Shown piece by piece: positions 11,258 to 62,248 of a stretch of DNA of 64,000 nucleotides (position 1 is its first letter; every line of letters begins with the position of its first letter). The notes under the pieces were generated by a model, which had not been told where the DNA came from, did no database searches, and was given only the letters and a program-made list of their open reading frames with translations. The DNA comes from Bacteroidota bacterium (GTDB lineage Bacteria; Bacteroidota; Ignavibacteria; Kapaibacteriales; NICIL-2). Position numbers and translations under genes: made by a program. Location: contig JAIBAE010000017.1 of assembly GCA_019695345.1 (NCBI GenBank), positions 563-64,562 on the forward strand. The letters run 5' to 3'.

Positions 11258-11332
11258 ATTTGTCCCGCAGACTGAGGTTAACTTTTGAATGCTACGTTAA
11301 GGTGCGGTCAGGCGATAGCAAACAAAACTATT
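11258..11332 (+). repeat. Family-2 bipartite element
   Basis: tgtcccgcagac ... ggtgcggtcaggcgatagcaaacaaaactatta. The tail ends on the lpxA TAA stop (complement). Confidence 0.7.
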
Positions 11333-12107
11333 ACCGATATACGCCACGTTTTGATATTTTGATAAACTCAACAATCTCGTTGATTATATCATTGGGAGTT
11401 TGGTTTGCTGTTGCGTAAGCGTTAATTCCATCGGTCATGTTATACCCGCTAAAGAAAACTGTGTTATAGAACGAATCAATCGTATCAACTTGCTCGCGAG
11501 TGAAACCACGGCGCAGTATTCCGATTTTATTAATGCCTTCTACTTTAACTGGCGTTCGACCTAATAACGCATACGGAGAAACATCTTTGGTAAGCATTGC
11601 ATCTGCCGCAACCATTGCGTGTTTTCCTACTCGGCAGAATTGATGAACCTTTGTAACACCGCCCAACACAACCCAATCACCAATTTCTACGTGACCGCCA
11701 AGCTGGGTTGCGTTTGCAATTACAACGTGGTTGCCAATGGTGCAATCGTGCGCAATATGTGAATACGCCATAATAAGGCAGTCATCGCCAACGGTAGTTT
11801 GTTTGGTGTGTGAACCACGGTTTACAGTAGCACATTCGCGTATGGTGGTTCTATCGCCAACAACCGCGTAAGTTGTTTGTCCGTGAAAACGTAAATCTTG
11901 TGGCTCTGCACCAATCACAGCTCCGGGGAATACTATGGACTCTTTGCCAACTCTTGAACCGTTCAATAACACGGTGTGATACATTAGTTGAGTGCCCGCA
12001 CCAACATGAACATCATCTTCCACAATTGCATAGGCACCAATGCTAACATTATCGTCGATGTGAGCTTTAGGAGAAACAATGGCAGTTGGGTGAATTTGTG
12101 TTGCCAT
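11331..12107 (-). CDS. lpxA: Acyl-ACP--UDP-N-acetylglucosamine O-acyltransferase
   Basis: Left-handed beta-helix hexapeptide repeats. Start MATQIHPTAIVSPKAHIDDNVSIGAYAIV is typical of LpxA. 258 aa. Confidence 0.9.
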   Translation of the reverse strand: MATQIHPTAIVSPKAHIDDNVSIGAYAIVEDDVHVGAGTQLMYHTVLLNGSRVGKESIVFPGAVIGAEPQDLRFHGQTTYAVVGDRTTIRECATVNRGSHTKQTTVGDDCLIMAYSHIAHDCTIGNHVVIANATQLGGHVEIGDWVVLGGVTKVHQFCRVGKHAMVAADAMLTKDVSPYALLGRTPVKVEGINKIGILRRGFTREQVDTIDSFYNTVFFSGYNMTDGINAYATANQTPNDIINEIVEFIKISKRGVYR

Positions 12108-13513
12108 TACGCCTCCTTATCAACTACTGCGGCTTGTAAATCTGCTTCGGCTACTAATTTGCCATCTACATACGCTTTAGCTTGCAGCGAAATAGTATTA
12201 AAGCGCTTACCGGTCATTTTAATATCCATTACCAGTTGATCGCCGGGGATTACCGGTTTACGAAACTTGGCGTTGTTGATGCCCATAAAGAACACCAACT
12301 TGTTATCGGTGAAGTTGCCATCAACATTCAATAACAACATGCAACCGCATTGTGCCATTGCTTCAAGTATCAAAACTCCCGGCATTACCGGACGCTCAGG
12401 AAAGTGTCCCGGGAAAAACGGTTCGTTAATAGTAACGTTTTTATATCCTATGATTCTGTTTTGTTCGGTATCAAACTCGGTAATTCTATCAACCAATAAA
12501 AATGGATAACGGTGCGGCATAACTTTTAGGATAGCATTTATATCCATAACAGCACCGTCAATCTTCTTGGGTTGAATTTTTCTCATTACCTTTTTCTGCT
12601 CGTACATCTTTCGGATTTTACGGGCAAACTCGATATTACTTGCATGACCCGGACGTGCAGCCAAAATCTGTGCTTTCATTGGTGCGCCAACTAATGCTAA
12701 GTCGCCAAGCATATCCAATAGTTTGTGGCGTGCCGGCTCGTTTTTATATCGTAAAGAATTATTATTCAATATTCCGTTCGAGCCAAGTACGGCGTTTCCT
12801 TGTATTCCAAGTTTGTGTAACAACGCGTGTAACTCATCATCGCTCATTTCTCTATCTACAATTACAATGGCGTTATCTAAGTTTCCACCGCGAATCAACC
12901 CTTGGTCCCACAACATTTCAACTTCGTTCAGGAAGCAGAATGTTCTGGAAGAAGCAAACTCGCTGATAAATTCTTTTTCTAAGTCAAACATACCGGTATG
13001 TTGCGAGCCCAATGCAGGATTGTTGTAATCAACCATCACTGTAATTCTAAAATCATCCATTGGCAATGCAACGATATCTACACCTTTTGCTTCGTTGGTG
13101 TAACGCACAGGTTGGTCGAACACAAGATAATCGCGTGGTGCTTTCTGATTAACTATTTCAGTTTGTTTAAGCACTTGTACAAATGGCATTGCAGAGCCAT
13201 CACCTACAGGCGGTTCGTTTGCTGTGAGTTCCATTCTGCAATTGTCTATCTGCAAACCTACTAAGGCAGCAAGAACATGCTCAACGGTGTGAACTTGTGT
13301 TCCATCAACTGCTAATGTTGTGCCGCGGGATATATCAACCACATTATCTACAAGAGCAGGAATCTCCGGCGAGTTCGGTACATCAGTACGAACAAACTTA
13401 AAGCCATAATTTTCTTCTGCCGGATGAAATGTGATAGTGGAAATGTTTCCTGTATGTAATCCAACCCCCGAAAAACTAACGGGTTCTTTGATTGTACGTT
13501 GTTGTTCTATCAT
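12107..13513 (-). CDS. lpxC-fabZ: Bifunctional UDP-3-O-acyl-GlcNAc deacetylase / 3-hydroxyacyl-ACP dehydratase
   Basis: N-terminal LpxC (HTGN, HTVEH motifs) fused to a C-terminal FabZ hotdog domain (LPHRYPFLLVDRI). This fusion is characteristic of Bacteroidota, Chlorobiota and Ignavibacteriota. Confidence 0.9.
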   Translation of the reverse strand: MIEQQRTIKEPVSFSGVGLHTGNISTITFHPAEENYGFKFVRTDVPNSPEIPALVDNVVDISRGTTLAVDGTQVHTVEHVLAALVGLQIDNCRMELTANEPPVGDGSAMPFVQVLKQTEIVNQKAPRDYLVFDQPVRYTNEAKGVDIVALPMDDFRITVMVDYNNPALGSQHTGMFDLEKEFISEFASSRTFCFLNEVEMLWDQGLIRGGNLDNAIVIVDREMSDDELHALLHKLGIQGNAVLGSNGILNNNSLRYKNEPARHKLLDMLGDLALVGAPMKAQILAARPGHASNIEFARKIRKMYEQKKVMRKIQPKKIDGAVMDINAILKVMPHRYPFLLVDRITEFDTEQNRIIGYKNVTINEPFFPGHFPERPVMPGVLILEAMAQCGCMLLLNVDGNFTDNKLVFFMGINNAKFRKPVIPGDQLVMDIKMTGKRFNTISLQAKAYVDGKLVAEADLQAAVVDKEA

Positions 13514-13758
13514 GAGCTGTGGTATGTGTCAAAATAAATCGGGTGCAAAAATACGTTTCATTGGGCAGTTAATCGTTACAACCTGCGTTTTTTTTCATTT
13601 TTTAGGTCTAACGCACCAATCCTCTGGCATTATAGTACGTTTTCTTGCGGGAAAGTCCCGCAATTCACGAACACCGTTTACCGTGACAGGAGGTTCTTTC
13701 CGGCATATTGTGGTTTTTTGAAGCTGAGATTTTTGGTGCCGCCACGCGAAGCAAAAGA

Positions 13759-14388
13759 TTACTCACAAACTACTTCAGTATATCGTTTGTGAGCACTTAC
13801 CGACTTAGAGTGTATATCAAAAAATCGTAATGGCAGTTCAGCGGACTTGGTAATTCCTATTCTTGTTGAGACTCCGATTGATACGGGCTTATCTTTATGT
13901 TGAAGCCAGAGTTCTGTATTACAACAACTTATACCATTTTCATTGCGTGTAAAACCTAAACCTTTTGCAACATTCCCCGGACCAGAAAGCAACTTTACGG
14001 CAGGACAATCCCCGCGTTGCTCTTGTATGAAGTCAATGCCGTGTAGTGGTTCAGCAGCTCGAATCAACACAGCACACCCAACAGAATCATCTTCCGTAAC
14101 AACGTTAATACAATGGTGGATACCATAAATAGAATACACATACAAAATACCGCCGTGTTCAAACATTTTATCGTTACGGGGAGTTCGTTTTGTAGCAGCA
14201 TGACAGGCCGCATCATTAGCGCCGAGATATGCCTCTGTTTCAACAATCTTACAAACAATGCTCTTTTCTTTAACGGTACGTATTATATAACTTCCAATTA
14301 AAAGTTTAGCTACATTAATAGTACCATTTCTCAGTTCTTGTTCTGTTATATGCTTGGAGAAATCGGGTTTAAAATCAACTATTTGCAT
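13759..14388 (-). CDS. mpg: DNA-3-methyladenine glycosylase (Mpg/AAG family)
   Basis: Motifs ETEAYLG, HA..G.T.RN..MF, GILYVYSIYGIHHCINVV. Confidence 0.8.
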   Translation of the reverse strand: MQIVDFKPDFSKHITEQELRNGTINVAKLLIGSYIIRTVKEKSIVCKIVETEAYLGANDAACHAATKRTPRNDKMFEHGGILYVYSIYGIHHCINVVTEDDSVGCAVLIRAAEPLHGIDFIQEQRGDCPAVKLLSGPGNVAKGLGFTRNENGISCCNTELWLQHKDKPVSIGVSTRIGITKSAELPLRFFDIHSKSVSAHKRYTEVVCE

Positions 14389-14451: not shown

Positions 14452-15720
14452 ATGTCACGGTTCAATACGCCTTTAGTTCGCTTTATTACTAACACTTCTG
14501 CACTAATCCTTGCCGACGGCTTGGCCTTAGTGTCTTCTGCTGTGTTTGTAATTTTGTTAGGAAGAACCTATGGCGCGGCACAACTGGGTTTGTTATCGTA
14601 TGCAATGGCGTTTGCAGCAATTGCCCAAACCATAGTAGATTCCGGTTACGATATTACTTTACCGCGTAAAATCGGGAATAATCCACAGACAGCTGTTGAA
14701 TCCGTTTTAAATTCCATGTCAACCAAAGCAATGATGAGCATTATTATACTCCCAGTTGCTTTTATCAGTACACTGTTTATCCGAACAGATGCCCACGTTT
14801 TAACTACTGTAATGTTAATTGACATTATACCCACAGTTATGGGATATACCTACTTGACCGCATTACGTGGATTATTAGTTACCAAAGAAAGTTCAGTTAT
14901 ACAAGGATTGTATACTTCAAGTATCTTTATTGTTTGTGGGTTATTAGTTCTACTACAGGTACCTCTTGTTGTCTTTACAATTGTTATGGTGCTTGGTGAT
15001 ACGCTGAAGTATTTTCACCTGAAAAAACTGATACAAGCCAAAGTGGGTACATCTGTTTCCATATCTAAAGTTTATAAACAACACCATAGCGTAACCTTGT
15101 GGAACACCACTCTATTATACACTGCATATAGAGAACAAAAATCATTATTGATTACAAACATACTTAGCAGTGCATTAGTTAGAGTTCCAACTGTTTTTTT
15201 AGGATGGTACTCTACCAACGTAGTTGTAGGAGAATACGCAGCGGCAGCTCGGTTTTATTCTTCATTACGGATTATCCCGGGTGCATTCTTTAATGCCATA
15301 TTGCCGGAATACTCCAATACCGAAACTCGTTCACCAAAAATTAAACGTGTGTTATTCCTTTCTATGTTCTGTGCAATATGTATATCGGCAATATTATATG
15401 TTGTTGCTCCATTACTAATTAAGTATACATTTACGTACACCGCTTCCGTAAATATATTACAAATACTATCTGTTGGCTTTTGTGGTTTATTCCTTAAAAC
15501 CATAGCGGAAGCATTTCTCTTAGCAAAACATCTGGAACACCTTGTTAACTACACGTTGTTAGGTGTTAGTATTTTTGCCATAAGTGCAATGTTGTATTTT
15601 TCAGGAACATCATCGGTTACTGTTGCATGGTGCGTTACACTCTCGGAATGGGCGCTGTGTATTATCATGACAATTATTTTACTCCTTACCCGTAGTGTGA
15701 GGCATCCAAGAAGGAATTGA
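14452..15720 (+). CDS. Polytopic membrane protein, putative oligosaccharide flippase (Wzx/MOP-like)
   Basis: About 12 predicted TM helices with a MOP-flippase-like N-terminus. Confidence 0.5.
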   Translation: MSRFNTPLVRFITNTSALILADGLALVSSAVFVILLGRTYGAAQLGLLSYAMAFAAIAQTIVDSGYDITLPRKIGNNPQTAVESVLNSMSTKAMMSIIILPVAFISTLFIRTDAHVLTTVMLIDIIPTVMGYTYLTALRGLLVTKESSVIQGLYTSSIFIVCGLLVLLQVPLVVFTIVMVLGDTLKYFHLKKLIQAKVGTSVSISKVYKQHHSVTLWNTTLLYTAYREQKSLLITNILSSALVRVPTVFLGWYSTNVVVGEYAAAARFYSSLRIIPGAFFNAILPEYSNTETRSPKIKRVLFLSMFCAICISAILYVVAPLLIKYTFTYTASVNILQILSVGFCGLFLKTIAEAFLLAKHLEHLVNYTLLGVSIFAISAMLYFSGTSSVTVAWCVTLSEWALCIIMTIILLLTRSVRHPRRN

Positions 15721-17444
15721 ACTCAGTGCATGTAATGAATTACTATCATCTATACAACTATACGCAACGTAATCAACTATTAATCCCATGCTTTGCATTG
15801 TGTTTAGTGTTGTTACATTCATGTGCAAATGTTCAGCCACCAAGTGGCGGACCTGCCGATAAAGAAGGTCCGTTTGTAGATACATCAACTATCCAATCAG
15901 GCATTACGAATTTTAAACAAAAGAGCATTGACCTACATTTTAGCGAATACGTTGATAAATCCAAAGTACTTGAAAGTATTATCATTTCTCCCGAAGCCAA
16001 GTTAGAGTTTGATTTCAGCTGGAAAACACTCACAATTACTTTTGCAGAACCATTGGATTCCAACGCAACCTATGCACTAACACTCGGAACCGAATACACT
16101 GATGTTCACGGCAACAAACCACAACAAGCACATACGCTTATTTTCTCAACCGGAACCATGTTGGACTCAGGTGTGATTCGCGGGAAGTTGTACGATAACA
16201 ATCCTGCCGGTACATACATCTTTTTGTATCCGTTAAAAAATATGAACCCCGATACCCTGAACTACTCAACAACCAAACCAAAATACAGAACACAGGTTGG
16301 AACAAACGGTATGTTCGAATTCAGGGCATTATCGGAAGGAATTTTCAGAATTGTTGCTGTTCGAGATGAAGATAAAAATGGGGTGTACAATGAAACCACC
16401 GATGCATTTGGAACAACTAACTTTGATGTTGCCTCAAGTAAAGGGGCTATTCAAGAGATTCCGTTACGCATTAATCCATTGAAAGATAAAATAGCTCCCT
16501 TTATGACTGAAGTACGGAGTAAATCAAACACAAAAACAGAAGTGTTATTTAACGAGCCAATTGATACCACGTCTATTACAACTGCCTCATGGTTGTTCAC
16601 CGATTCTGCCGGAGTAATGAACGCAACTATTCTTGCAACGTATGTAGCACCCGGTAATGCAAAGAACGTCCTGCTCATTACTTCTCCGTTCGATTCAACC
16701 GTCCGCACGTGGAAAATTACCTGCAAGAACAACGGCCAGTCGGTAAAGGATACTTCCGGAAATGCGGTTCCTGATTCTGTAAACTCAATGTTATTTTCTG
16801 CTTCGCAAGAGCGCGACACAACCACAGTTATACTTCAAACCATTTCCCTGCGCGACAGTACTCGCAACGTATCTCTAAAGCCAACATCACAAATAATATT
16901 TAATGGTGCTATCAAGCATGATGGTATTGAGCAACGTTTGGGGCTGTTCAAAGGCAATACACGTATTGAATCAAACATCACATGGCATGGCGATAATATT
17001 GTAAGTATAACACCAAAGGATTCACTCACTGGCAATACCTGGTACGAGCTTCGTTTCAGAACATCTGGTATCACCAGCGTACTTGGAAAACCTGTTAACG
17101 ATACGTTGTATCGTAATGCATTTAAAACACTTGATACTCGCACTTTTGGTATTGTAAAAGGAATAATTAAAGACTCTCTTGCCACTTCCAAAAGTTATGT
17201 GATAGAACTAAAAGGTAAAACCACGTTAATCCGTACCATTTCTAAAGCCGGCAGTTTTGTATTTAACGATGTCCCCGAAGGCGACTACACTGTTACAATC
17301 TTTGGCGATGATAACGGAGATGGAAAATACACTGCAGGTAACGCCAAACCATATCAACATGCGGAACGGTTTGTCTCTTTAGAAAAACCAATTACCGTTA
17401 AAGCACGCTGGACAATAGATGATATCAAATTGGAGTTAAAATGA
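15717..17444 (+). CDS. Lipoprotein with Ig-like (SbsA-type) domains
   Basis: Lipobox LLHSC after a hydrophobic segment. Beta-rich repeats. The real start may lie at an internal Met. Confidence 0.45.
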   Translation: MNSVHVMNYYHLYNYTQRNQLLIPCFALCLVLLHSCANVQPPSGGPADKEGPFVDTSTIQSGITNFKQKSIDLHFSEYVDKSKVLESIIISPEAKLEFDFSWKTLTITFAEPLDSNATYALTLGTEYTDVHGNKPQQAHTLIFSTGTMLDSGVIRGKLYDNNPAGTYIFLYPLKNMNPDTLNYSTTKPKYRTQVGTNGMFEFRALSEGIFRIVAVRDEDKNGVYNETTDAFGTTNFDVASSKGAIQEIPLRINPLKDKIAPFMTEVRSKSNTKTEVLFNEPIDTTSITTASWLFTDSAGVMNATILATYVAPGNAKNVLLITSPFDSTVRTWKITCKNNGQSVKDTSGNAVPDSVNSMLFSASQERDTTTVILQTISLRDSTRNVSLKPTSQIIFNGAIKHDGIEQRLGLFKGNTRIESNITWHGDNIVSITPKDSLTGNTWYELRFRTSGITSVLGKPVNDTLYRNAFKTLDTRTFGIVKGIIKDSLATSKSYVIELKGKTTLIRTISKAGSFVFNDVPEGDYTVTIFGDDNGDGKYTAGNAKPYQHAERFVSLEKPITVKARWTIDDIKLELK

Positions 17445-18528: not shown

Positions 18529-19101
18529 ATGGCATTTACAATTATCGAAGAATTACTCAACGGCTTAGTCCTTATCAAACCCGATGTATTTGGCGATGAC
18601 CGTGGTTTTTTTATGGAAGCGTATAATGAAAACAGTTTCAAACAACTTGGCATTAACGCTCATTTTTTTCAGGATAACCATTCTCGTTCATCGCAAGGTG
18701 TGTTGCGTGGATTACATTTCCAATGGGAAAAGCCAATGGGCAAGCTTATACGTGTTGTTCGTGGTAGCATTCAGTTGGTAGAAGTAGATATACGCCCCAA
18801 CTCTCCAACGTGTGGTGAACACATCATGCGTGAGTTATCAGAGGGCAACAAACTTATGATGTGGATTCCTCCCGGATTTGCTAATGGCTTTTTAGTAACA
18901 AGTGATGTAGCTGATGTTCAATACAAATGTAGCGCTATCTACAACCCGCCGTGCGAAAGTGGAATCCGCTGGAACGACTCGGCTCTTGGGATTAACTGGG
19001 GTATTGAACTGCCCACGCTTTCACCTAAAGATGCAAATGCCCAAACATTACAAGAATGGCTCTCCAAACCAGAGGCACAAGTGTTTACGTATTATAAGTA
19101 A
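18529..19101 (+). CDS. rfbC: dTDP-4-dehydrorhamnose 3,5-epimerase
   Basis: RmlC cupin motifs (GDDRGFFME, RGLHFQ). Confidence 0.9.
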   Translation: MAFTIIEELLNGLVLIKPDVFGDDRGFFMEAYNENSFKQLGINAHFFQDNHSRSSQGVLRGLHFQWEKPMGKLIRVVRGSIQLVEVDIRPNSPTCGEHIMRELSEGNKLMMWIPPGFANGFLVTSDVADVQYKCSAIYNPPCESGIRWNDSALGINWGIELPTLSPKDANAQTLQEWLSKPEAQVFTYYK

Positions 19102-19291
19102 TACTATTATGCTAACGCAATCCGCGCCACAACATATTTAAGTACAAACCATTCTCTTGCGGGAAAAAAACCTCCGCAACTACAAATCCAACATCATGAA
19201 ACGATATGTTGTTAGGCTAACGTTCTCTCCTGCAACGCATTGTTATGTTGTTTTTCAACAGTACGGAGCAGTCATGCGATAGCAACAAAAA

Positions 19292-21649
19292 CTACCGTAA
19301 CTCCACTTGTGTTACACCTGCATCGCCTTCTCCAATACTACCCAAACGATATGACGCAACTTGCGGATGCTCGCGAAGAAACTCGTGGATTGCCTGACGC
19401 AACGCACCTGTTCCCTTACCGTGTATGATAGTTAGAAAAGGAACGTTACCGGCAATTGCATTATTGAGAAACACGTCAATGTTAGCCATTGCCTCGCCGG
19501 CGCGTTGTCCACGCACATCAATAGAGGTTGCTGCCGATAAATTCAGATTCTGTCCACTTGCAGCACGGGTGCGTTGAACATTTTTAATATCGGAATGTCG
19601 TAACTCCTGAACGTTCACTTTGAACTTAATTCCATTGAAATCAATGAGTGCTTGTTTGCCATCCAATTCAACAATCACACCAACCTGATTAGAATCCCGA
19701 ATAACAACCGAATCACCCAACACGAACTCTTCGCTCTGATTATTGGAGCTTTTTGGCGCAAACTGCTCAACGTTACTTATGATTTCCTTGCGGAGTTTCT
19801 CAATATCTTGTTTTACCTCGCCAACCGGACGAGACTGTTCACGAATTTCTTTAATGGCTTGCTCAACTTGCGATTGCGCTTTACGTACAACTTCTGCTGC
19901 CTCACTGTTCGCAGTCTCCATGAGTTTACGGTATTTTACTTTAAAGTCATTAAAACGTTGCTCATATTCTTTACGCTTTTTCTCCGCTTCCGATAGTTCT
20001 TTAAATGTATCCATACGAAGTTTCTCTGCTTCCATACGATACTTTTGCATCACAGCTATACTCTGTTCAAGTTCGCTGTGTTTATCGCCCAGGTATTCCT
20101 TAGCGCGGTTCATCACAACTTCCGGCAACCCAACAGATTTTGCTAACTCAAATGCGTAAGAATTTCCAGGAACACCTTGCAAAAACTTATACGTCGGAAC
20201 AAGCTTCTCAGGATTAAACTCAAGCGACGCATTTGCTATTTTCTCTCGGCTTAATGCATAACTTTTTAGTGAGCTTTGGTGCGTTGTAACCACAAAGAAT
20301 GCTCCGCGTTCTATAAAAGAATCTAACACTCCGCTTGCTAAAGCACTACCTTCTGTGGGGTCGGTACCGGAGCAAATTTCATCAACTAACACCAATGCAT
20401 CCGGCGCACAAAACGAGAGGATATCTCGTAGGCGTAGAATCTGTGATGAAAAGGTTGATAAATCAGATTCAATACTTTGGTGGTCTCCAATTGCCGCAAG
20501 CAAACGCCGTGGATTTGTAGTACACTCCCCTAACGGAAAAATACCCGATAACGCCATAGCAATGTTTAACCCAATGCTTTTCATGGCAACCGATTTCCCT
20601 CCGGCGTTCGGACCGGAAATAAGATGTCCGCACGTTTTAATATCAAAGGTCACTGTAAGTGGAATAACATTCTTTGCACCTTTGGATTGCAGTAACAACG
20701 GATGAAAGATATTCCGCAGTTCTACTAACGGTTCATCAACAATACGAGGTTTAATACCACCATTTTGAATTGCATACTGTGCCTTTGCATGAATTGTATC
20801 CAACAACGTTAACGTGGATAAACTTCGTTCAATATCATACGCTACTCCGCCAATCTCACCTGTTAATGTAGAAAGAATACGAACAATCTCTCGTTGCTCT
20901 TCGCTATGTAGCAGAGAGAGTTCGTTGTTCATTTCAAATGTTTCCATTGGCTCTAAAAATACAGTAGAACCCGATGACGAAACACCATGAATCAAACCCG
21001 GAATAGCACGTTTACTTTCTACCTTTAACGGAAGTACAAATCTGCCTTCACGTTGTGTAACGTATTCTTCTTGCAACAAATCATCCTCGCCAAGTTTGGC
21101 AAGTATCTTTTGTAAACGGTTACGAAGCTTTGCACTGGTTTCAAAAATGTCGGCACGAATACGTTGTAGTTCTTTTGTAGCGTTATCACGGATATTTCCG
21201 GTTTCATCAATTGCATCGGTAATATGCTTTTCCAATAATCTGTTTTCGTACAGATTATTACTCATTTCGGTAAGACCGGGCATAGCATCACGCTGGCGAA
21301 CAAAGAAGGCAATTAACCTACGCGAGGATTGCAGTACTTCCAGCACATCTAAAATCTCACCCGATTGCAAAAAGGCACCGGCAATCAACGACTTCTGTAT
21401 CTGTGCAGAAATATCTTCCGTGCGTTCCATTGGGAACGTTTCACCACTTAGCAGTAACGTGTACATTTCATACACACGTTCATGTTCGGCTTGTAACCAC
21501 GGCACATCATTCAACGGAACAATGTCCAACAGGTGTTCTTTTCCAAGCACCGTCATGCAATGCCGTGCAACAATCTCCCGCACTTTCGGGAATTCAACTT
21601 CTTCTAACGATACACGTAGTAATTCTTCTTCCTGTTTAACGCTGTCCAT
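19292..21649 (-). CDS. mutS2: Endonuclease MutS2
   Basis: MutS domain III/ATPase (GPNAGGKS Walker A), long coiled-coil, C-terminal Smr domain. 785 aa. Confidence 0.9.
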   Translation of the reverse strand: MDSVKQEEELLRVSLEEVEFPKVREIVARHCMTVLGKEHLLDIVPLNDVPWLQAEHERVYEMYTLLLSGETFPMERTEDISAQIQKSLIAGAFLQSGEILDVLEVLQSSRRLIAFFVRQRDAMPGLTEMSNNLYENRLLEKHITDAIDETGNIRDNATKELQRIRADIFETSAKLRNRLQKILAKLGEDDLLQEEYVTQREGRFVLPLKVESKRAIPGLIHGVSSSGSTVFLEPMETFEMNNELSLLHSEEQREIVRILSTLTGEIGGVAYDIERSLSTLTLLDTIHAKAQYAIQNGGIKPRIVDEPLVELRNIFHPLLLQSKGAKNVIPLTVTFDIKTCGHLISGPNAGGKSVAMKSIGLNIAMALSGIFPLGECTTNPRRLLAAIGDHQSIESDLSTFSSQILRLRDILSFCAPDALVLVDEICSGTDPTEGSALASGVLDSFIERGAFFVVTTHQSSLKSYALSREKIANASLEFNPEKLVPTYKFLQGVPGNSYAFELAKSVGLPEVVMNRAKEYLGDKHSELEQSIAVMQKYRMEAEKLRMDTFKELSEAEKKRKEYEQRFNDFKVKYRKLMETANSEAAEVVRKAQSQVEQAIKEIREQSRPVGEVKQDIEKLRKEIISNVEQFAPKSSNNQSEEFVLGDSVVIRDSNQVGVIVELDGKQALIDFNGIKFKVNVQELRHSDIKNVQRTRAASGQNLNLSAATSIDVRGQRAGEAMANIDVFLNNAIAGNVPFLTIIHGKGTGALRQAIHEFLREHPQVASYRLGSIGEGDAGVTQVELR

Positions 21650-22860: not shown

Positions 22861-22994
22861 AGTATCAGGTTGAGTCATGGTAAATGTTGTTTAGATTGCG
22901 GCGGTTCTCTCCATGCAGATTACGTTGTTAAATTGGTAGCGGCACGGAGCAGAAAACAAAAAAGAAAATATTTTAAGAGTAATACAGTACGATA

Positions 22995-25395: not shown

Positions 25396-25433
25396 AAAAA
25401 GTCAGGTATCACTTGGTATCTGACTTTTTTTGT
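25396..25433 (+). terminator. Rho-independent terminator after topA
   Basis: Hairpin aaaaagtcag...ctgacttttt followed by TTTTTTG. Confidence 0.6.
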
Positions 25434-25521
25434 TTTCAGCAAGAGCAATCATCAAAGCAACAATCCACACTGTGCATGGACAGAACCTCTCTCGCGATGT
25501 TTGGCAGTTATCGCAGATGGG

Positions 25522-25592
25522 ATTTTCTTCGGCAAGAAGCGATTGTTACTAAAGAGTGGTTAGGTGCCGTCTGCGGTAGCAGAAAATAAAAA
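25522..25592 (+). repeat. Family-2 bipartite element (variant)
   Basis: ttcttcggcaagaagc ... ggtgccgtctgcggtagcagaaaataaaaa. Confidence 0.55.
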
Positions 25593-25622
25593 AGGAGTAC
25601 CCGTGTTTTGGATACTCCTTTT
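25590..25622 (-). terminator. Rho-independent terminator after the 25642..27732 gene
   Basis: Hairpin aaaaggagta-cccgtgttttgga-tactcctttt with a T-run on the minus strand. Confidence 0.55.
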
Positions 25623-30490: not shown

Positions 30491-30564
30491 AGCATTGTTT
30501 CAATAGTAATGAGTAATTCGTAATGATATTGTTACACTGTATTGGTTAATGTGTTTATTATTTC

Positions 30565-30645
30565 AAGGTTCTGTCCCGCAACTGTAAGGGTGTAATTAGG
30601 GAGTATGGTTGGTGCGGTTTGCGATAGCATAAACAATTACTGTGA
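30565..30645 (+). repeat. Family-2 bipartite element
   Basis: ctgtcccgcaactg ... ggtgcggtttgcgatagcataaacaattac. The tail ends on the xerC/D stop (complement). Confidence 0.7.
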
Positions 30646-31548
30646 TTCCATGTTTGCTTTGGGATGCGCCTTTTTATACGCTTGCTTTAGCCTCTCGATA
30701 CTTACATGAGTATAAATCTGCGTGGTTGATATTGAGGCATGTCCAAGAAGCTCGCTTACCGACTGTATATCCGCGCCGTTATCAAGCATGTGTGTAGCAA
30801 AACTATGCCGCAAAACGTGTGGCGATTTTTGCTTAGACTCTGTAACTCCTTTCATTGCAGAGTTAATAATTCTCCAAGCCTGCGAACTGCTTAGCCGAGT
30901 TCCCGAATTTGAAACAAACAACGCCTTCTCGTTAAAGTCCGGTTTAAAGTGGTTGCGTTTTTCAAGATACGTATCAATTGCATTCAAGGATGGAATGCCA
31001 AGCGGAACTATCCTTGGTTTTCTACCCTTCCCGATAACTTTAACTGTTGTGTTAGTACGATTAATGGAATCTATATCCAACTGCAACGCCTCGCTTATTC
31101 GCATTCCCGAGCTATACAATAACTCAGCAAGTGCAGCACCACGCGAACCTACTGCTGTGTTCCGGTCGAACTTCTCCATTAAATGTTCAACTTCCCTTTG
31201 CTGAATATACGATGGCAAACGTTTATCAACTTTAGGAGCTGTAATACCAACTGTTGGGTTTCGTTCGCAGTAACCACGTTTAGTACAAAACTTAAAAAAT
31301 GATTTCAATGCCGAGAGCTTCATTCGTAGAGTTTTTTTGTCCATGCCTTTATCATGTAACCATCCTAAAAACGGACGTACATCTTTGTTGGTAATGGCAT
31401 CTACATTTGGTTGCTGCTCATATGATTCCATTACGCACTCATAAAACTGAGCAAGTGCTAAACGATACCGTTCGGTAGTGTGCGCCGAGTAAGCACGCTC
31501 TACCTGGCAATACTGTAAAAATGCGCTGATGGCTTCTTGTAGGTTCAT
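30637..31548 (-). CDS. Tyrosine site-specific recombinase XerC/XerD
   Basis: R..HxxR..Y catalytic residues (HVLRHSFATHML, ...TQIYTHV) and an N-terminal core-binding domain. Probable start is MNLQEA at 31548. Confidence 0.85.
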   Translation of the reverse strand: MNLQEAISAFLQYCQVERAYSAHTTERYRLALAQFYECVMESYEQQPNVDAITNKDVRPFLGWLHDKGMDKKTLRMKLSALKSFFKFCTKRGYCERNPTVGITAPKVDKRLPSYIQQREVEHLMEKFDRNTAVGSRGAALAELLYSSGMRISEALQLDIDSINRTNTTVKVIGKGRKPRIVPLGIPSLNAIDTYLEKRNHFKPDFNEKALFVSNSGTRLSSSQAWRIINSAMKGVTESKQKSPHVLRHSFATHMLDNGADIQSVSELLGHASISTTQIYTHVSIERLKQAYKKAHPKANMESQ

Positions 31549-33202: not shown

Positions 33203-33247
33203 AACATTTTCAGAAATATGTGTCATTTGAGATATTGACACAGACAA

Positions 33248-33325
33248 GGTTTTATCCCGCACAACAAGGTTCTTAATTGAAAATTGGTTTGGTGCGGTCT
33301 GGCGATAGCAAAGAAAATTATTTAC
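33248..33325 (+). repeat. Family-2 bipartite element, 20-45 nt upstream of the 33346 start codon
   Basis: ttatcccgcacaac ... ggtgcggtctggcgatagcaaagaaaattattt. Confidence 0.7.
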
Positions 33326-33345
33326 AATTATATATCAGGTGTTGT

Positions 33346-43815: not shown

Positions 43816-43844
43816 AAATCTACATTATTTAACTACCTCTATAT

Positions 43845-45277: not shown

Positions 45278-47632
45278 ATGATACTCCGACTTGTCATGTC
45301 TGCTTGTTTTTTTGTATCAGTTCACGTTCAGTGTGCACCGTTTCAAGGGATTAACTTTACCGGAGTTGTATCCGATAGCATAACACAGTTGCCAATTCAA
45401 GGTGCAACAGTCATGTTAATAGAACTGCACAAACGCGACATCACCCACGCAGATGGTAGTTTTCACTTTCAAGACTTCCCAAAAGGAAGTTATTCAGTTG
45501 GCATCAGATATCCGGGATATAAAGATAAAGTGTTAAAGATTACTGTTGTTCACGATACCATGGTAAAGGTGTTACTAACACCGTGGGTAATAGAAAAACA
45601 AGCGGTTATAGTTGAATCAAAATCCCTGAAATCTACTCTTGCCAATACTCAAACTCCGGTGGTGTTAACACCTGCGGAAGTTGATGTTCACCGCGGACAA
45701 ACTCTTGGGGAATCGTTACAGGATATACCCGGTGTGACTTTACTGCAAACTGGCGCTTCTGTTTCCAAACCTGTTATTCATGGGCTTCATAGCCAGCGAA
45801 TTGCTATTGTAAATAGTGGTGTAATACAAGAAGGTCAACAATGGGGTGCAGAGCATGCTCCTGAAATAGATGCGTTCGCAAGTAATAACATAGAAGTCTT
45901 AAAGGGTCCTGCCAGTGTAGAGTATGGTGCCGGAGCATTAGGTGGTGTGATACGCGTTGAGTCAAAGGAATTTCGTTATAATGGTTCTCTTGGAGCAACC
46001 CTTTTCCTAAATGGCTTTTCAAACTCAAGGCAAGGTGCAGCATCATTTCAAGCAGATGGCGGAAACCTTCCATGGTTCGACAATACAGGTTGGCGTACTC
46101 AATTTACTTACAGGCGTGCAGGCGATTCACAATCACCTCTGTACACTCTCTCAAACACAGGATTTCAGGAGATTAACGGTAACATTGGGCTGGGAGTATT
46201 AGGTGTAAAAAGTGGCTATCAACTTTCCTACTCGTTGTTTACTTCTTTAGCAGGAATATTAAGTGCATCGCACATAGGTAATGTGAACGACTTGCAGCGA
46301 GCTCTTGAAAGTGGGTCTCCAACTATTGTAAAAGATTTTACCTATACCATCAATCCGCCAAAACAACAGATTGAACACCATACTGTTAATCTGAATACAT
46401 TCTTTATGTTACCCGTTGGAAAACTGGAGATGCAATATGGATGGCAACGCAATGACCGTTATGAGTTTGATGCACATAACTCACGGATTACAGATACTAC
46501 CTATCTGCAACAGTATCTTAATACACCGGCCATGAACCTATCACTATCAACATATTCCCTATCAGCTAAACTACATCATCACGAAATTGGAAGTATTAGT
46601 GGTGTAGTTGGCTTAAACGCGGCACGGCAACGGAATGTACGAGACGGAAGAGTTATTCTTATTCCAGATTATACCTCTTATTCTGTAGGCGGTTTTATCT
46701 TAGAAAACTACACAACTCAGGACTGGGCATTTACAGTTGGAAGCAGATATGATTGGCAAATATTAACTGTTAATCCTTTAAGCAAAACCGGTGCTTCCCT
46801 GCCCGATTCTACTTTTACCTTTACATCTTTTTCCGGCGCATTAGGTGTATTACGGCAACTCTCACAAGATTTTACCATTGCACTTAATCTATCATCCGGC
46901 TGGCGACCTCCGCAGGTTAGTGAGTTATATAGTAACGATGTACATCACGGGACAGCTCAATTCGAAATAGGCACTACATCTTTGTTACCTGAACGTTCGT
47001 ACGCTGCTGATGTTTCTTTGCATTATAACACCGACCGAACACGCACAGAACTCAGTGCCTATGGTAACTATATAAACAACTACATTTTTCTATTACCCGA
47101 TAAAGACCACCCAACGGTTACAATTCGAGGTGTGTTCCCTACTTTTTATTACACACAAGCGAACTCTGTGATTTCAGGTATAGATGCAACTGCAGAGTAT
47201 CAATTTACCCCTTGGATACGAGGGGGTTTACTTGGTGCTATTGTTCGTGGCAACAACGTTGATAGCAAAGAGCCATTACTTAACATGCCTGCCGATAGAA
47301 TTACGGTAACATTGCATCTTCACACCGACGATGTTTGGGGATTTCACGAACCATTTATTGAGGTGCGAAGTAATTTGGTAGCACAACAAACCCGTTACCC
47401 TGTAAATGTTGACCTTGCAAATCCACCACGTGGCTATACATTGTTTTCGCTTCAAACCGGTGGAACAGTTCCTCTGCTGGGTACACACATTAAAGCAACA
47501 TTGGAAGCAACAAATGTTTTTAATACAGAGTATCGTGATTATCTTAGCAGGTATCGTTACTTTGCATTAAATGCCGGACGCAATATTATTCTGCGAATTA
47601 CAATACCAATGGGTGTGTATGCTTCGGAATAA
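45278..47632 (+). CDS. TonB-dependent receptor (CarbopepD_reg + plug + barrel)
   Basis: Carboxypeptidase-regulatory-like N-domain, plug motif (VLKGPASVEYGAGALGGVI), and a barrel of about 550 aa. Confidence 0.8.
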   Translation: MILRLVMSACFFVSVHVQCAPFQGINFTGVVSDSITQLPIQGATVMLIELHKRDITHADGSFHFQDFPKGSYSVGIRYPGYKDKVLKITVVHDTMVKVLLTPWVIEKQAVIVESKSLKSTLANTQTPVVLTPAEVDVHRGQTLGESLQDIPGVTLLQTGASVSKPVIHGLHSQRIAIVNSGVIQEGQQWGAEHAPEIDAFASNNIEVLKGPASVEYGAGALGGVIRVESKEFRYNGSLGATLFLNGFSNSRQGAASFQADGGNLPWFDNTGWRTQFTYRRAGDSQSPLYTLSNTGFQEINGNIGLGVLGVKSGYQLSYSLFTSLAGILSASHIGNVNDLQRALESGSPTIVKDFTYTINPPKQQIEHHTVNLNTFFMLPVGKLEMQYGWQRNDRYEFDAHNSRITDTTYLQQYLNTPAMNLSLSTYSLSAKLHHHEIGSISGVVGLNAARQRNVRDGRVILIPDYTSYSVGGFILENYTTQDWAFTVGSRYDWQILTVNPLSKTGASLPDSTFTFTSFSGALGVLRQLSQDFTIALNLSSGWRPPQVSELYSNDVHHGTAQFEIGTTSLLPERSYAADVSLHYNTDRTRTELSAYGNYINNYIFLLPDKDHPTVTIRGVFPTFYYTQANSVISGIDATAEYQFTPWIRGGLLGAIVRGNNVDSKEPLLNMPADRITVTLHLHTDDVWGFHEPFIEVRSNLVAQQTRYPVNVDLANPPRGYTLFSLQTGGTVPLLGTHIKATLEATNVFNTEYRDYLSRYRYFALNAGRNIILRITIPMGVYASE

Positions 47633-47694
47633 GCTATCGCAAGCGGTTCCAAACAACTAATTTCAAAACAGCAATCATTACACCGGACAGTATC

Positions 47695-48186
47695 TTGGCT
47701 ACAACAAAACATGTATCGTTTATTATAGCTTTTCTGTTTACATTTTATACAGAAATTTTTGCAGGAAGTACATTAAATGAATTACTTCCCGGAACATGGT
47801 ATGTACAAAAGATGGAATTGATGAGTACGCGGTTACTAACACGCCAACAGCAACGGAAGTTTACCGCTACAAAACGAAAGTTAGAAAAAACGAACAACCA
47901 AATAACAAGCGGCACTATAATTATCAGGGTTGATTTCAAAACAGATAGCTCTTATAATTACAAGATGACGGAAAACCACAGAGTGTTTTATTTTGAACGC
48001 GGGAATTGGCGCTATCAAGATAGTGTGATGCAGGCGTTTAATCTAACTCACGAAACTGACCGTTCATCGTTCAATAACGAAAAGACAGTTACTCTTACAC
48101 CCGATACATGGATTGTAGAATTCACTGTATTAGGAAACAACAGCGGTATAAAACAACGAATTATTTACAAGAAAAAGTCTAACTAA
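47695..48186 (+). CDS. Hypothetical secreted protein (lipocalin-like?)
   Basis: Signal peptide, 163 aa. Confidence 0.35.
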   Translation: MATTKHVSFIIAFLFTFYTEIFAGSTLNELLPGTWYVQKMELMSTRLLTRQQQRKFTATKRKLEKTNNQITSGTIIIRVDFKTDSSYNYKMTENHRVFYFERGNWRYQDSVMQAFNLTHETDRSSFNNEKTVTLTPDTWIVEFTVLGNNSGIKQRIIYKKKSN

Positions 48187-48759: not shown

Positions 48760-48848
48760 AGTGCGGGACAGTGAGATACTGTCCCGCGATAAGCTTGTGT
48801 TTTGTTATTGTGTTATGGCGCGGTCTGCGATAGCAAAATATTATTCCA
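48760..48848 (+). repeat. Family-2 bipartite element with an extra perfect hairpin at box A
   Basis: gcgggacagtgagatactgtcccgcgat ... ggcgcggtctgcgatagcaaaatattatt. The tail ends on the czcB stop (complement). Confidence 0.7.
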
Positions 48849-49992
48849 AATCTCCCCTCTTCATAGAACTCAGTAACATAAACGCTCCTTTACCAACAAC
48901 TTTAGAAGACTGTAATGTTACAGCAGAACGTATAGCCACCATATTCGCTACGCGTTGCAGTTGTTGAACCTGTACCATTGTATAAGTACGATTACTGGTT
49001 TCAACAAACACATATTGCTTACCGGCATCCTGAACTATTGAAGTTTCGGGCACCGTTAGTTCTGTTGTAGATGGTGTGTTGATTGCAGCTTGTAAAAACA
49101 TACCAGGCAAAACATGAGGCGCTCGGTTATCGAAGTGACAATGAACAATTGCATTGCGGTTCTCGTTGATGTTTTGCGATATAAGTATTATACGGGCTGA
49201 GTGGGTATCGTTGGGAATGTTTGGTAACGTAATACGCACTGTTTGACCAATTGCAATTGTTGGTAAATCTTTTTCGAACACGTTTAGCGAAGCATGAATA
49301 TCGGAGGGATTCACAATCTCGGCTATGGTCTCGCCTGACTGAATGTACTTTCCAATGTTCGACGTTACTTTACTAACAAAACCATTAATGGAGGAACGTA
49401 TTGTAATGCTGCGCGAAATAGTTTCCTCGGTTAATGTTTTAGGATTAATACCAATCAGCAGGAGTTTTTCCGAAAGAGTTTTTTCCGTAACTAGAATTGT
49501 TTTATATTCAGCCTCTGTTTGTTCAACATTTCTACCGGAAGTAGCTTCAGTTTTATACAACTCAGTTTGACGTTGGCGTTCTTTATCAAGCAATGTGTGT
49601 TTAATTTTTGTAGCTAAGTACTCCTGTTGTAGTTGCAGAAAAACGGGGTCTTCTAATCTTGCTATAACCTCACCTTGCTTAACATGACTTCCGGGTAAGA
49701 CAGTAATATCTTTAAGTATTCCGCCATAGTTTGAGCTAACCGAAATCATTGATTGCGGCGGAACATCAACAGTACCATTAACCAGTATTGTTGTTGCTAC
49801 CTGTTGTTGAAGTGGAAGTTGGGTTTCGATACCAGCATTTTGAAATTGTTTTTCTGTAAGTGTTACTGACTGTTGTTGTGTACCGGATACTGTAGTTTTT
49901 TCAGGTGGCGTATTTTGTTTTTGGCTACACGCCAACAAAAACAGCACAACAATCTGTGTAACAATAAATATTTTTTTTCTGTAATGATTCAT
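48841..49992 (-). CDS. RND efflux periplasmic adaptor subunit (HlyD/CzcB family)
   Basis: Biotinyl-lipoyl-like, beta-barrel and MP domains. Probable start is MNHYRKK at 49992, 8 nt after the czcA stop. Confidence 0.8.
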   Translation of the reverse strand: MNHYRKKIFIVTQIVVLFLLACSQKQNTPPEKTTVSGTQQQSVTLTEKQFQNAGIETQLPLQQQVATTILVNGTVDVPPQSMISVSSNYGGILKDITVLPGSHVKQGEVIARLEDPVFLQLQQEYLATKIKHTLLDKERQRQTELYKTEATSGRNVEQTEAEYKTILVTEKTLSEKLLLIGINPKTLTEETISRSITIRSSINGFVSKVTSNIGKYIQSGETIAEIVNPSDIHASLNVFEKDLPTIAIGQTVRITLPNIPNDTHSARIILISQNINENRNAIVHCHFDNRAPHVLPGMFLQAAINTPSTTELTVPETSIVQDAGKQYVFVETSNRTYTMVQVQQLQRVANMVAIRSAVTLQSSKVVGKGAFMLLSSMKRGDLE

Positions 49993-54984: not shown

Positions 54985-55182
54985 TCCCGCATCTGCCGTA
55001 GCCATCCTTCAGCGCCGTCACACGGGCGGAGGATACCGTTACAGCATCGCGGACTTTAACGTAGAGTGTTTAATCTTGAGAAGTTAGTACAGGGTACTAC
55101 ATGCCTGAATAGTGCGACGCTGAACCGTTTGGTTCGCACCGGGTTGGCGCGCTGAAGCGTTGCTTCGGCATGTGAGCGTACA
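54985..55182 (+). repeat. Family-1 intergenic repeat, copy E (diverged)
   Basis: tctgccgtagcc ... cagcgccgtcacacgggcgg ... gaaccgtttggttcgcaccgggttggcgcgc ... gcttcggcatgtgagcg. Confidence 0.65.
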
Positions 55183-55192
55183 ACAATTGAAT

Positions 55193-57748: not shown

Positions 57749-57788
57749 GAAATCCGAGAAAAATTTAGTTTCTGATTTACTTTTTCAA

Positions 57789-60851: not shown

Positions 60852-60927
60852 AATGAATACAAATGGTAAGCAATGAAACTATACTCAATTTACAAAATCA
60901 AACGAAGAAGGACAGTACATAATTGAG

Positions 60928-61000
60928 GTTTTGTCCGGCAAGTGGATAATATTTTATGTATGGTGGTTCGGTGCCGTTTGCGATAGCAGAATATTTAGCT
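60928..61000 (+). repeat. Family-2 bipartite element
   Basis: ttgtccggcaagtgg ... ggtgccgtttgcgatagcagaatattta. The tail ends on the histidine-kinase stop (complement). Confidence 0.7.
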
Positions 61001-62098
61001 AAAAAGCGGGAAACAGATTGTGAATGTTGAGCCTGTGCCAACAATACTTTCCACGTGAATGCTACAACCGTGCTGCTGTAGAATGCGTTGGATGATTGCC
61101 AGACCTAACCCTGTACCTTCGGCTTTGCGGGTAAAGAATGGGTCGAAGATTTTTGTGAGGTCTTCCTCCGATATTCCCATGCCGTTGTCCTTAATGCGCA
61201 TCATGATACACGGTTTGCCGTGCTCGCCAACTTCTATGTTGGTTTTAATGATGATTTCACCTTTTAGAGTGATGGCATCGCAAGCGTTAGTTAACAGGTT
61301 AATTAATACTTGCTGCATTTGGTTTACATCGGCACTGACTACCGGAAGCTCTTCATCAAGGTCAAGCTCTACTATTATTGCCTTACGAAGCAGAATATCC
61401 GAGATTAAATCTATGGAATCCACTACCACCGAGTTCAGATTTACAGGAGTAACTCTTGGCGGTAATGGCTTGGCAAAATTGAGTGTTGTGTTTACTATAT
61501 TCAGGATACGCTCAACTCCACGGAGTGCGGTGTTTACATATTGAATATGCGGCTCGGTTTCCGAAATTTTGCGGAGCAACATTTGCAAGTTCAGGTTCAC
61601 AGCCGCTAACGGATTACGTATCTCGTGAGCAACCGAAGCGGAAAGCTGACCTAACAACATCATTTTATCGGCTTGCAGCATTTTATCGGTTAAAGCACGC
61701 TGTTCGGTTACATCGCGGGCAATTGCAAGAATTAATCGTTGACCGTCGTAATCAATAAATCGCGCACTTACCTCAAGCTGAATTTTATTGCCATTACTAT
61801 TTTCAAACTCAACTTCCGAAAGCACTGTGGGCACAACCGACCGCGAAAGCAACGAGAACACATGCTTAAACTCGGGCAAACGTTTACCAAGTAAGTCGGC
61901 ATGGGCAACCCCCAAAATAGCCGAGGCACGTTCGTTGGAATCCAACACACACCATGTTTCCGATTGTATCATAAACACAGCATCGGCGGCATTGTCGAAA
62001 AACGACTTATACCACGCAACTTGTTTTTGCAGTTGTTTTGCCTGTTCCTGTGAAGTTCTGGATTTTACAGGTTTCGATATGTCAGTTTGGGTTTTCAT
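60995..62098 (-). CDS. Sensor histidine kinase (PAS, HisKA, HATPase_c)
   Basis: PAS-like N-terminal region, H-box (SASVAHEIRNPL), and N/G1/G2 boxes (DNGMGI, GTGLGL). Confidence 0.85.
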   Translation of the reverse strand: MKTQTDISKPVKSRTSQEQAKQLQKQVAWYKSFFDNAADAVFMIQSETWCVLDSNERASAILGVAHADLLGKRLPEFKHVFSLLSRSVVPTVLSEVEFENSNGNKIQLEVSARFIDYDGQRLILAIARDVTEQRALTDKMLQADKMMLLGQLSASVAHEIRNPLAAVNLNLQMLLRKISETEPHIQYVNTALRGVERILNIVNTTLNFAKPLPPRVTPVNLNSVVVDSIDLISDILLRKAIIVELDLDEELPVVSADVNQMQQVLINLLTNACDAITLKGEIIIKTNIEVGEHGKPCIMMRIKDNGMGISEEDLTKIFDPFFTRKAEGTGLGLAIIQRILQQHGCSIHVESIVGTGSTFTICFPLFS

Positions 62099-62164
62099 AA
62101 TGCTTTACTAATCAGTACAAGCATTGTGCCAAAGCAAAAAAGCCCCAAATAAAAGGTAAATTTA

Positions 62165-62248
62165 GAAGAATATCATTTGCTATCGCGGGACGGCACCAAA
62201 GGTTAGCAACAATACAACCTTATCTTGCCGGATAGAAGCGCTATTAAT
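62165..62248 (-). repeat. Family-2 bipartite element, about 75 nt upstream of the histidine-kinase start
   Basis: Minus strand reads tatccggcaagata ... tttggtgccgtcccgcgatagcaaatgatattc. Confidence 0.65.

Follow-up and report, generated by a model that had tools for sequence, protein, structure and literature searches.

The closest described counterparts of the repeat family reported here are the repetitive extragenic palindromic elements (REPs) and bacterial interspersed mosaic elements (BIMEs) of Enterobacteria and Pseudomonas. These are high-copy and extragenic, lie in either orientation, form inverted dimers, and are associated with a REP-associated tyrosine transposase (RAYT). They are lineage-specific and vertically stable, and their structure is kept by compensatory change. 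About half of the REPs of E. coli reportedly lie within 15 nt of a stop codon and are said to be able to affect translation of the upstream gene, an observation attributed to Liang, Rudd and Deutscher in 2015. REP termini can overlap or supply the stop codons of neighboring genes, occasional copies lie inside open reading frames (ORFs), and dimers occur head to head, tail to tail and head to tail (Di Nocera et al., PMC3733652). In a 64,000-nt stretch of a Bacteroidota genome of the Kapabacteria (contig JAIBAE010000017.1, positions 563 to 64,562; the window), we describe a family of bipartite units that resembles REPs in its genomic behavior and is built on a different fold, a short long-range helix followed by a mini-hairpin.

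The unit is about 95 nt long, or about 140 nt when an optional upstream box (CACGATAAC; box 0) is included. Ungapped profiles and the model alignment place, from 5′ to 3′, the optional box 0, box A, a loop, box B, a linker, a mini-hairpin and an A-rich tail (Table 1 gives the parts of the best-scoring copy). Box A contributes CCSGCA and box B TGCSGG to a 5-bp long-range helix (P1). The strands of P1 are separated by a loop of 29-33 nt (30-32 nt in 67/73 copies) that is G/U-rich and C-poor (C 11%, G 31%), and every box A-to-box B distance from 38 to 42 is found. Box B reads GGTGCSGT and is followed by a 3-4-nt linker and the mini-hairpin GC-G(N1-2)A-GC, whose 2-bp GC/CG stem is invariant in 71-72 of 73 copies and whose loop is GAUA in most copies and GUUA, GGUA, GAAA, GUAA, GAA or GCA in others. 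The mini-hairpin and the unpaired flanks TTCTyT and GG are nearly invariant, and the tail is A-rich, G-poor and fades within ~10 nt. An initial annotation of the window, made from the sequence alone on about ten copies, had the box A right in its core; it extends further 5′ as TTCTyT, with the core TTCTyTCCSGCA set in (A/G)AGGTTCTyTCCSGCA. The spacer of 35-45 nt given there is too long, and of its nearly invariant box B of ~30 nt, GGTGCSGT plus GCGATAGCA (~20 nt) holds up while the tail is A-rich but variable.

Box 0, (C)ACGAT(A/G)A(C), accompanies ~35/73 copies and stands a constant ~32±1 nt away from box A. The consensus leaves it unpaired, RNAalifold detecting no partner for it in 34 sequences, and in direct orientation it resembles (ACGATAAC) the 3′ hairpin (GCGATAGC). 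Only ~12 copies carry an additional tight TGCSGG..CCSGCA hairpin, and in the copy at 48766-48860 box A pairs also with an upstream GCGGGACAGU segment. Three copies have a 51-nt loop owing to an inserted hairpin. The same 20-nt hairpin (GGGCAGAAAAUUUUCUGCCC) stands in the loops at L103 1139-1254, L082 2012-2127 and L121 883-997, metagenome copies with a mutual identity of 85-91%; by sequence, this is the sole sign of a recently shared sub-lineage in the family.

The evidence for P1 is its covariation. In the alignment of 73 sequences, 97.8% of cells are paired; 44 copies have C-G as the central pair, 26 have G-C, 2 have U-A and 1 has another combination. All five stem pairs have at least one double-sided change, none of 500 shuffles reaches any of the five measures, and sliding the stem partner by 1-3 columns destroys the pairing signal. 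Because the 73-sequence alignment was fitted to the model, we counted raw pattern matches separately, with both central S positions left free. All of these are complementary (50/50; 35 C/G and 15 G/C), and C/C and G/G do not occur. The pairings first noticed (ccgca/tgcgg, ccgcg/cgcgg and cggca/tgccg) are thus correct and hold on 73 sequences, and the proposal of selection on pairing in a single-stranded nucleic acid is supported. The analysis shows that the unit folds, when single-stranded, into a 5-bp long-range helix closing a 31±1-nt C-poor loop, with the mini-hairpin 3-4 nt later and then the A-rich tail.

Individual loci add to this picture. In the copy at 19212-19309, a terminal A.A mismatch is an A-U pair in strain L126. 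In two species, copies at L088 251-346 and L091 430-526 overlap the stop codons of orthologous moaE-like genes that are 74% identical in DNA; one copy is C-G and the other G-C, and both have the same GGG-type linker. The two copies probably stem from a common ancestor, though this falls short of proof, their loops being no more similar than random.

The family is dispersed well beyond the copies first seen. The box B core GCGATAGCARAA occurs 8 times in the window at ≤1 mismatch (0.63 expected; 0/100 shuffles reach 8). A covariance model built from the first copies (R1) and one built from the 73 sequences (R2) each detect 17 copies in the window; in the R2 scan, 15 have E < 1e-5. This corresponds to ~1 copy per 3.8 kb, and ~14 of roughly 55 intergenic gaps, about a quarter, are occupied. 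All ten copies of the initial annotation exist, at or within ~15 nt of the positions it listed, and the one at 19220 that it called partial is a full copy with a T-A central pair. The model built from them, a check it had proposed, added seven further copies at 13683 (+), 13578 (-), 16774 (-), 19085 (-), 22894 (+), 29336 (-) and 47607 (-).

A metagenome search with a 24-base bipartite pattern, both variable stem positions left free, returned 44 contigs, 42 of which carry 59 covariance-model matches. A 51.6-kb contig in a viral collection (L127 and L128; IMG/VR UViG_3300033075_001822) has 11 copies within the 24.8 kb read. The wide dispersal of the family is supported by these matches. The 42 contigs have no other sequence in common with the window or with one another, except for one orthologous pair, and so they provide no empty-site comparison. 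A looser pattern, GGTGCSGTN{2,4}GCGATAGCA, run over 596 Gb of genome contigs gave 74 chance single matches in unrelated phyla. The viral-filed contig is the sole 'viral' one with copies. It shows no phage hallmark genes, for which reason a phage origin of the family was rejected, and almost all of its ORFs are without a Pfam or PHROG match; a chromosomal island or a wrong classification as viral is the probable explanation.

Comparison with relatives indicates age. Across 67 kb from relatives whose TopA is 79%, 74% or 71% identical there is no copy, despite conserved gene order around topA. In strains of 99.96%, 99.1% and 97.1% nucleotide identity all copies are present, with no more than one 1-nt indel (10-15 kb compared). 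Any two copies are ~38% identical in their variable columns, which is saturation, while the boxes are intact. Absence from sister genera, stability between strains and saturated variable parts together indicate an old family that is confined to a single lineage, shows no visible mobility at present and is under constraint at the boxes and stem of each copy.

Copies lie in either orientation relative to neighboring genes. The stop codon of a convergent ORF falls 0-20 nt past the hairpin in ~36/76 copies, and in ~40% of copies a same-strand start codon lies 16-150 nt downstream of the tail. With box 0 included, the opposite end likewise comes near coding sequence, so that the units largely fill intergenic gaps. 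The copy at 25512-25606 is bracketed by canonical intrinsic terminators at 25396-25429 (+; topA) and 25590-25622 (-; a convergent gene of the type IX secretion system, T9SS) and is therefore outside both transcription units. One copy, 16774-16871, is contained antisense in an intact ORF with a Big_5 domain (15717-17444, +) that is also called in strains L075 and L126.

The sequence of this last copy is itself variable, ~9% of its positions differing from strain L126 (2.9% overall). A hot spot of single-nucleotide differences is 29336-29416, with 10/136 of the differences between the window and L075 within these 81 bases. From the sequence, the true start of the DUF5723 gene at this locus is probably the ATG 25 nt downstream of the copy at 29336-29431 and not the annotated start.

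Neighboring copies are arranged in one way only. All 16 pairs less than 200 nt apart are head-to-head, with the box B ends outward (tail-to-tail and tandem, n = 0), a spacer of -22 to 129 nt and a dimer length of ~220-300 bp. Single units outnumber dimers ~3:1 and are equally well conserved. Identity between the arms of a pair equals that between random copies (0.379 vs 0.379), for which reason a long hairpin between the dimer arms was rejected. The arms carry different central pairs in 13/16 pairs, where about half is expected (P ~0.013). This fits selection against box A of one arm pairing with the reverse-complemented box A of the other, a mispairing that matters only if one single strand spans both arms.

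Table 1. Copies of the repeat family in the window and parts of the best-scoring copy. Scores are in bits under models R1 / R2.
Feature	Position	Strand	Location or basis	Score (R1 / R2)
Best-scoring exemplar copy, C-G type	33239..33335	+	between aldehyde dehydrogenase gene and gene of a T9SS-tailed protein	86.8 / 81.3
Exemplar box A, TCCCGCA	33255..33261	+	P1 5′ strand 33257-33261; position profile, pair counts	
Exemplar loop, 31 nt, G/U-rich, C-poor	33262..33292	+		
Exemplar P1 3′ strand TGCGG, within box B GGTGCGGT	33293..33297	+	pair counts	
Exemplar mini-hairpin GC-GATA-GC	33302..33309	+	followed by A-rich tail 33310-33325	
Copy, G-C type, left arm of head-to-head pair	4897..4994	-	upstream of DUF4505/thioesterase gene	67.2 / 61.0
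Box 0 (ACGATAAC) of copy 4897-4994	5003..5010	-	~32 nt 5′ of box A, in head-to-head spacer	
Diverged copy, C-G type, one broken pair, degenerate hairpin, right arm	5017..5109	+	upstream of glmS	60.3 / 52.9
Copy, C-G type	11247..11345	+	tail overlaps stop of lpxA (11331-12107, -), 11 nt after hairpin	73.9 / 59.2
Degenerate copy, box A intact, box B/hairpin decayed, left arm	13578..13668	-	upstream of lpxC-fabZ	19.6 / 23.4
Copy, G-C type, GAA triloop, right arm	13683..13778	+	tail overlaps stop of MPG glycosylase gene	49.5 / 58.4
Copy, shifted GCGC/GCGC stem, GAA triloop	16774..16871	-	antisense inside ORF 15717-17444	30 / 47.7
Copy, C-G type, terminal A.C mismatch, GUUA loop, left arm	19085..19180	-	tail overlaps rmlC stop	43.1 / 57.7
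Copy, T-A central pair, right arm	19212..19309	+	tail overlaps mutS2 stop	73.1 / 62.8
Weak, degenerate copy	22894..22985	+	upstream of topA; E ~0.07-0.16	16.6 / 17.4
Copy, G-C type, GGUA loop	25512..25606	+	between two intrinsic terminators	61.8 / 55.6
Copy, C-G type, terminal A.C mismatch, GCA triloop	29336..29431	-	annotated 5′ end of DUF5723 ORF	18.2 / 33.2
Copy, C-G type	30558..30654	+	tail overlaps stop of xerC/D-like recombinase gene	71.3 / 67.0
Copy, CGGU/ACCG stem (one pair C-G -> U-A)	47607..47703	-	fills gap between TonB-receptor gene and next ORF	38.7 / 45.0
Copy, C-G type, terminal pair G-C	48766..48860	+	tail overlaps stop of HlyD-family gene	71.6 / 63.3
Copy, G-C type	60918..61013	+	tail overlaps stop of histidine-kinase gene	74.7 / 66.6
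Copy, G-C type, inner AAGGUU/AACCUU hairpin	62153..62248	-	upstream of histidine-kinase gene	80.7 / 75.5

Set beside the described systems, the family shares with REPs and BIMEs the high copy number, the extragenic position in either orientation, the inverted dimers, the overlap with stop codons, the occasional copy inside an ORF, the restriction to a lineage, the vertical stability and the compensatory change, and the likeness to REPs drawn at the outset fits this genomic behavior. It departs from them in construction. A compact 20-40-bp palindrome is lacking and a 5-bp stem closes a ~31-nt loop instead; no conserved GTAG or CGTC tag appears in the family profiles, CGTC being only a by-product in G-C-type copies; a G(N)A mini-hairpin and an A-rich tail are added; only head-to-head dimers are seen; and no RAYT was found in the ~160 kb read. 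The family thus works like REP/BIME but is not a member, having a 5-bp helix and a G..A mini-hairpin in place of the compact palindrome and the GTAG/CGTC tag. REPINs (Bertels and Rainey) likewise consist of two inverted units with a short spacer and persist for long in one lineage, but their arms are near-identical and form one long hairpin, whereas the arms here are dissimilar, usually of different stem variants, and most units are singletons.

The ends of IS200/IS605 elements and the palindrome-associated transposable elements (PATEs) are, like our units, asymmetric and without terminal inverted repeats (TIRs), and in them a short pairing links a distal sequence to the bases just 5′ of a hairpin. 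The present family differs in its 2-bp hairpin stem and its canonical 5-bp Watson-Crick helix 31 nt away, and neither a TnpA or TnpB gene nor evidence of mobility in the strain comparison was found. Correia (Neisseria), ERIC, BOX and RUP elements and the Rickettsia palindromic elements (RPEs) are also dispersed 100-150-nt repeats, are co-transcribed with neighboring genes, and include modular repeats (BOX) and some copies inside ORFs (RPEs); they have no sequence similarity to the family, which is without TIRs or a TA duplication and whose single units are not large palindromes. Structured-RNA motifs of Bacteroidota and Chlorobi in Rfam, such as Flavo-1, Chlorobi-1 and Bacteroidales-1, are likewise short, were found by covariation and belong to one lineage each, but the family has no match in Rfam 15 and its copy number is far higher. 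By the definitions of these classes, the family is not a REP, and it appears to be neither a miniature inverted-repeat transposable element (MITE) nor an IS200/IS605 derivative.

With moderate confidence, we read the family as a host-maintained, lineage-specific structured extragenic repeat, REP/BIME-like in working, that would be recognized in single-stranded RNA or DNA. The fold would be what a protein recognizes, and selection would maintain it locus by locus, given that almost all copies retain their boxes and pairing although mutation has saturated the variable parts. The C-G and G-C stem variants would serve as orthogonal addresses, so that the box A arms of a head-to-head pair do not cross-pair. 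The single-stranded form may be a read-through or antisense transcript, which we judge slightly more likely, or lagging-strand template DNA. By analogy with E. coli REPs, candidate effects on neighboring genes are protection of transcript ends, insulation, and an influence on translation near stop codons.

Several observations weigh against this reading. The defining features of REPs, the compact palindrome and the GTAG/CGTC tag, are absent, and no partner protein or transposase was found in the ~160 kb read. The fold is thermodynamically weak (mean z -0.3 forward and -0.5 reverse against dinucleotide shuffles), and 16 pairs underlie the orthogonality statistic. The constant spacing between box 0 and GGTTCT gives the look of a two-block promoter, which would favor an RNA gene. 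The evidence on the functional strand conflicts. The written strand, possibly as RNA, is favored by the G..A loop, the G/U-rich loop and the UNCG tetraloop and GTTCnnTCC module of a second repeat family in the window (family 1, below); the orientation independent of genes points the other way, as do the few stem mismatches, which are mostly A.C on the written strand and would be G.U on the other.

If the behavior seen here holds genome-wide, it would argue for locus-by-locus selection on a protein-recognized single-strand fold, and not merely for selfish DNA, and would supply a defined motif for finding the recognizing protein. The family is an unusually clean natural data set on why bacteria keep REP-like repeats: in dozens of ancient copies, conservation is limited to a 5-bp helix, a mini-hairpin and a few unpaired positions, and the choice between the two interchangeable stem variants seems to be made so as to avoid cross-pairing of neighboring units. 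It also places structured extragenic repeats in the Kapabacteria (Bacteroidota), a group known only from metagenomes, whose genomes can now be annotated with the covariance model and their gene calls corrected (one copy or more is found within, or overlapping, an annotated ORF).

Among the other explanations, an origin as single-stranded DNA substrates of an HUH transposase (IS200/IS605 TnpA or RAYT-like) is unlikely, and still the most credible. The units would then be true REP/REPIN or PATE-type non-autonomous elements, and the box A/box B helix a guide/cleavage-site pairing as in IS608. The left end of IS608 has the order target-like box, spacer, guide-like box, hairpin, and by analogy the order box A, spacer, box B, hairpin matches it. 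Orientation independent of genes, head-to-head dimers as in REPINs and restriction to one lineage would also be expected, and a RAYT may exist in genomes of the family, given a GTAG-tagged REP on contigs that carry it. The hairpin stem of 2 bp is shorter than those of TnpA and RAYT substrates, however, the similarity of paired arms is that of random copies (0.379 in both), strains show no insertion polymorphism, and the saturated variable parts speak against recent amplification. The RAYT/TnpA(IS200)-like gene that the initial annotation suggested looking for was not found in the ~160 kb read (~5% of a genome; the window and ~100 kb of metagenome contigs), and phmmer found no Y1 transposase among 470 ORFs, which is a weak negative. 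Next in credibility, and likewise unlikely, is an independently transcribed small RNA or leader, in which box 0 and GGTTCT would be a two-block outward promoter of the extracytoplasmic function (ECF) type, the RNA would start near box A with P1 as its 5′-terminal helix, and head-to-head pairs would be divergent promoters. The unpaired box 0 at its fixed distance, the same-strand start codons downstream of ~40% of copies, the position of copy 25512 outside both neighboring mRNAs and before a bidirectional terminator, and the shared GTTCnnTCC and RNA-typical C(UNCG)G tetraloop of family 1 agree with it. Yet some half of the copies are directed at the 3′ end of a convergent gene, so that their transcripts could only be antisense, half have no box 0, and the module holds no sigma-70 or Bacteroidetes-type -33/-7 match. 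A transcript start at box A also gives no reason for differing stem variants in adjacent arms, and we know of no precedent for several hundred RNA genes of one family in a genome. The small-RNA or untranslated-region reading of the initial annotation keeps some probability, while the inconsistent orientation relative to genes tells against it. The global fold does not exceed shuffles in stability. A bolder version, to which we give little credence, would make the family a new class of host-encoded RNA modules in several hundred copies and not selfish DNA of the REP kind. Each module would have its own two-block promoter-like box, a platform of P1 and GNNA hairpin recognized by a protein, and the central pair as orthogonal address, allowing two modules to function back-to-back with no cross-pairing; genome-wide, the modules would flag where coding regions begin and end, in the service of insulation, antisense control or RNA processing.

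That the head-to-head dimer (~220-300 bp) is the full element, a TIR-type MITE with box B and tail as its TIRs and single units as half-element relics, is very improbable. The outward box B ends of all 16 close pairs, the conservation of box B above all other parts and a dimer size typical of MITEs would suit it. Single units are ~3:1 in excess and conserved just as well, though, the dimer arms are no more similar than random and their spacer ranges from -22 to 129 nt, and a covarying stem within one arm goes unexplained by TIRs. Strain polymorphism was not seen at 97-99% identity (10-15 kb), nor a transposase in the sequence read; target-site duplications are not scorable from the fuzzy element ends. 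The mobile MITE proposed at first finds no support: single units are without TIRs, strains at 97-99% identity do not differ in presence or absence of copies, and the variable parts are saturated at ~38% identity. Least credible of all are double-stranded DNA sites for a dimeric or looping regulator or a nucleoid protein, with two inverted half-sites ~38 bp apart. Tightly fixed box spacing (31±1-nt loop), invariant flanking TTCTyT and GG and a weak predicted single-strand folding energy are in keeping with such sites, but one protein on two half-sites needs no co-variation, and yet 50/50 raw matches are complementary and four other positions are compensatory.

The family was also compared with known classes of non-coding and regulatory sequence. 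Rfam 15 (4227 models) gives no match in the window at gathering thresholds and, with E relaxed to 5 over 33 kb, none that falls on a copy, in line with the first description of the element as one without a name. A small peptide was rejected: the C/G change is synonymous in one frame, but the frame is not kept, and the family is non-coding because loop and linker lengths vary by single nucleotides. An intrinsic terminator was rejected as well, the A-run following the hairpin on the forward strand and the U-run preceding it on the reverse strand, and no copy appears in the terminator scan. Sigma-54 spacing is absent, sigma-70 promoters have 33 matches against 54 expected, and the Bacteroidetes-type TAnnTTTG has 54 against 61 expected, with no consistent place in the element and no -33/-7 match in the module. 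Integron attC sites were excluded, as RYYYAAC / GTTRRRY cores are lacking, copies face both ways and their neighbors are housekeeping genes (topA, glmS, lpxA, mutS2). The forward strand folds 3.5 kcal/mol better than its complement (better in 63/70 copies); this advantage is one of composition (G/U richness), since z-scores against shuffles are near zero on both strands, and a strong global RNA fold was rejected.

Two further repeats were recorded. Family 1 occurs in the window at 2585-2666, 7091-7181, 40934-41020, 43741-43830 and 55104-55190 (+) and at about 40826-40858 and 55012-55029 (-), with the consensus GCGATGCTG..GTTCnnTCCGnCCGGGT..CGGCGC..GC(UUCG/UACG)GC..GGGAA. It has the GTTCnnTCC module in common with the family studied here, carries a C(UNCG)G tetraloop typical of RNA, also forms head-to-head pairs, abuts convergent stops at 2667, 7175 and 55193, and has no Rfam match. 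The GTAG-tagged palindromic REP (GTAGAGACGCGATGCTTCGCGTCT) lies on contigs carrying the family (L086 1271-1396, L111 2102-2241, L087 999-1018 and L124 406-425), often in tandem arrays with a period of 53-60 nt, and is absent from the window.

The window has a G+C content of ~40% and contains the housekeeping genes glmS, lpxA, lpxC-fabZ, rmlC, mutS2 and topA, an xerC/D-like recombinase gene and a resistance-nodulation-division (RND) pump; no transposase, reverse transcriptase or phage gene is among its genes. Several of its proteins have a T9SS C-terminal sorting domain, which assigns the window to the Bacteroidota, and its TopA is 100% identical to MFN8367913.1 ('MAG: Candidatus Kapaibacterium sp.'). 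At 50000-54382 (-), a single 1460-aa ORF comprises a full AcrB-type RND transporter and an outer-membrane-factor (OEP) domain, which is either an unusual fusion or the product of a missed stop or frameshift.

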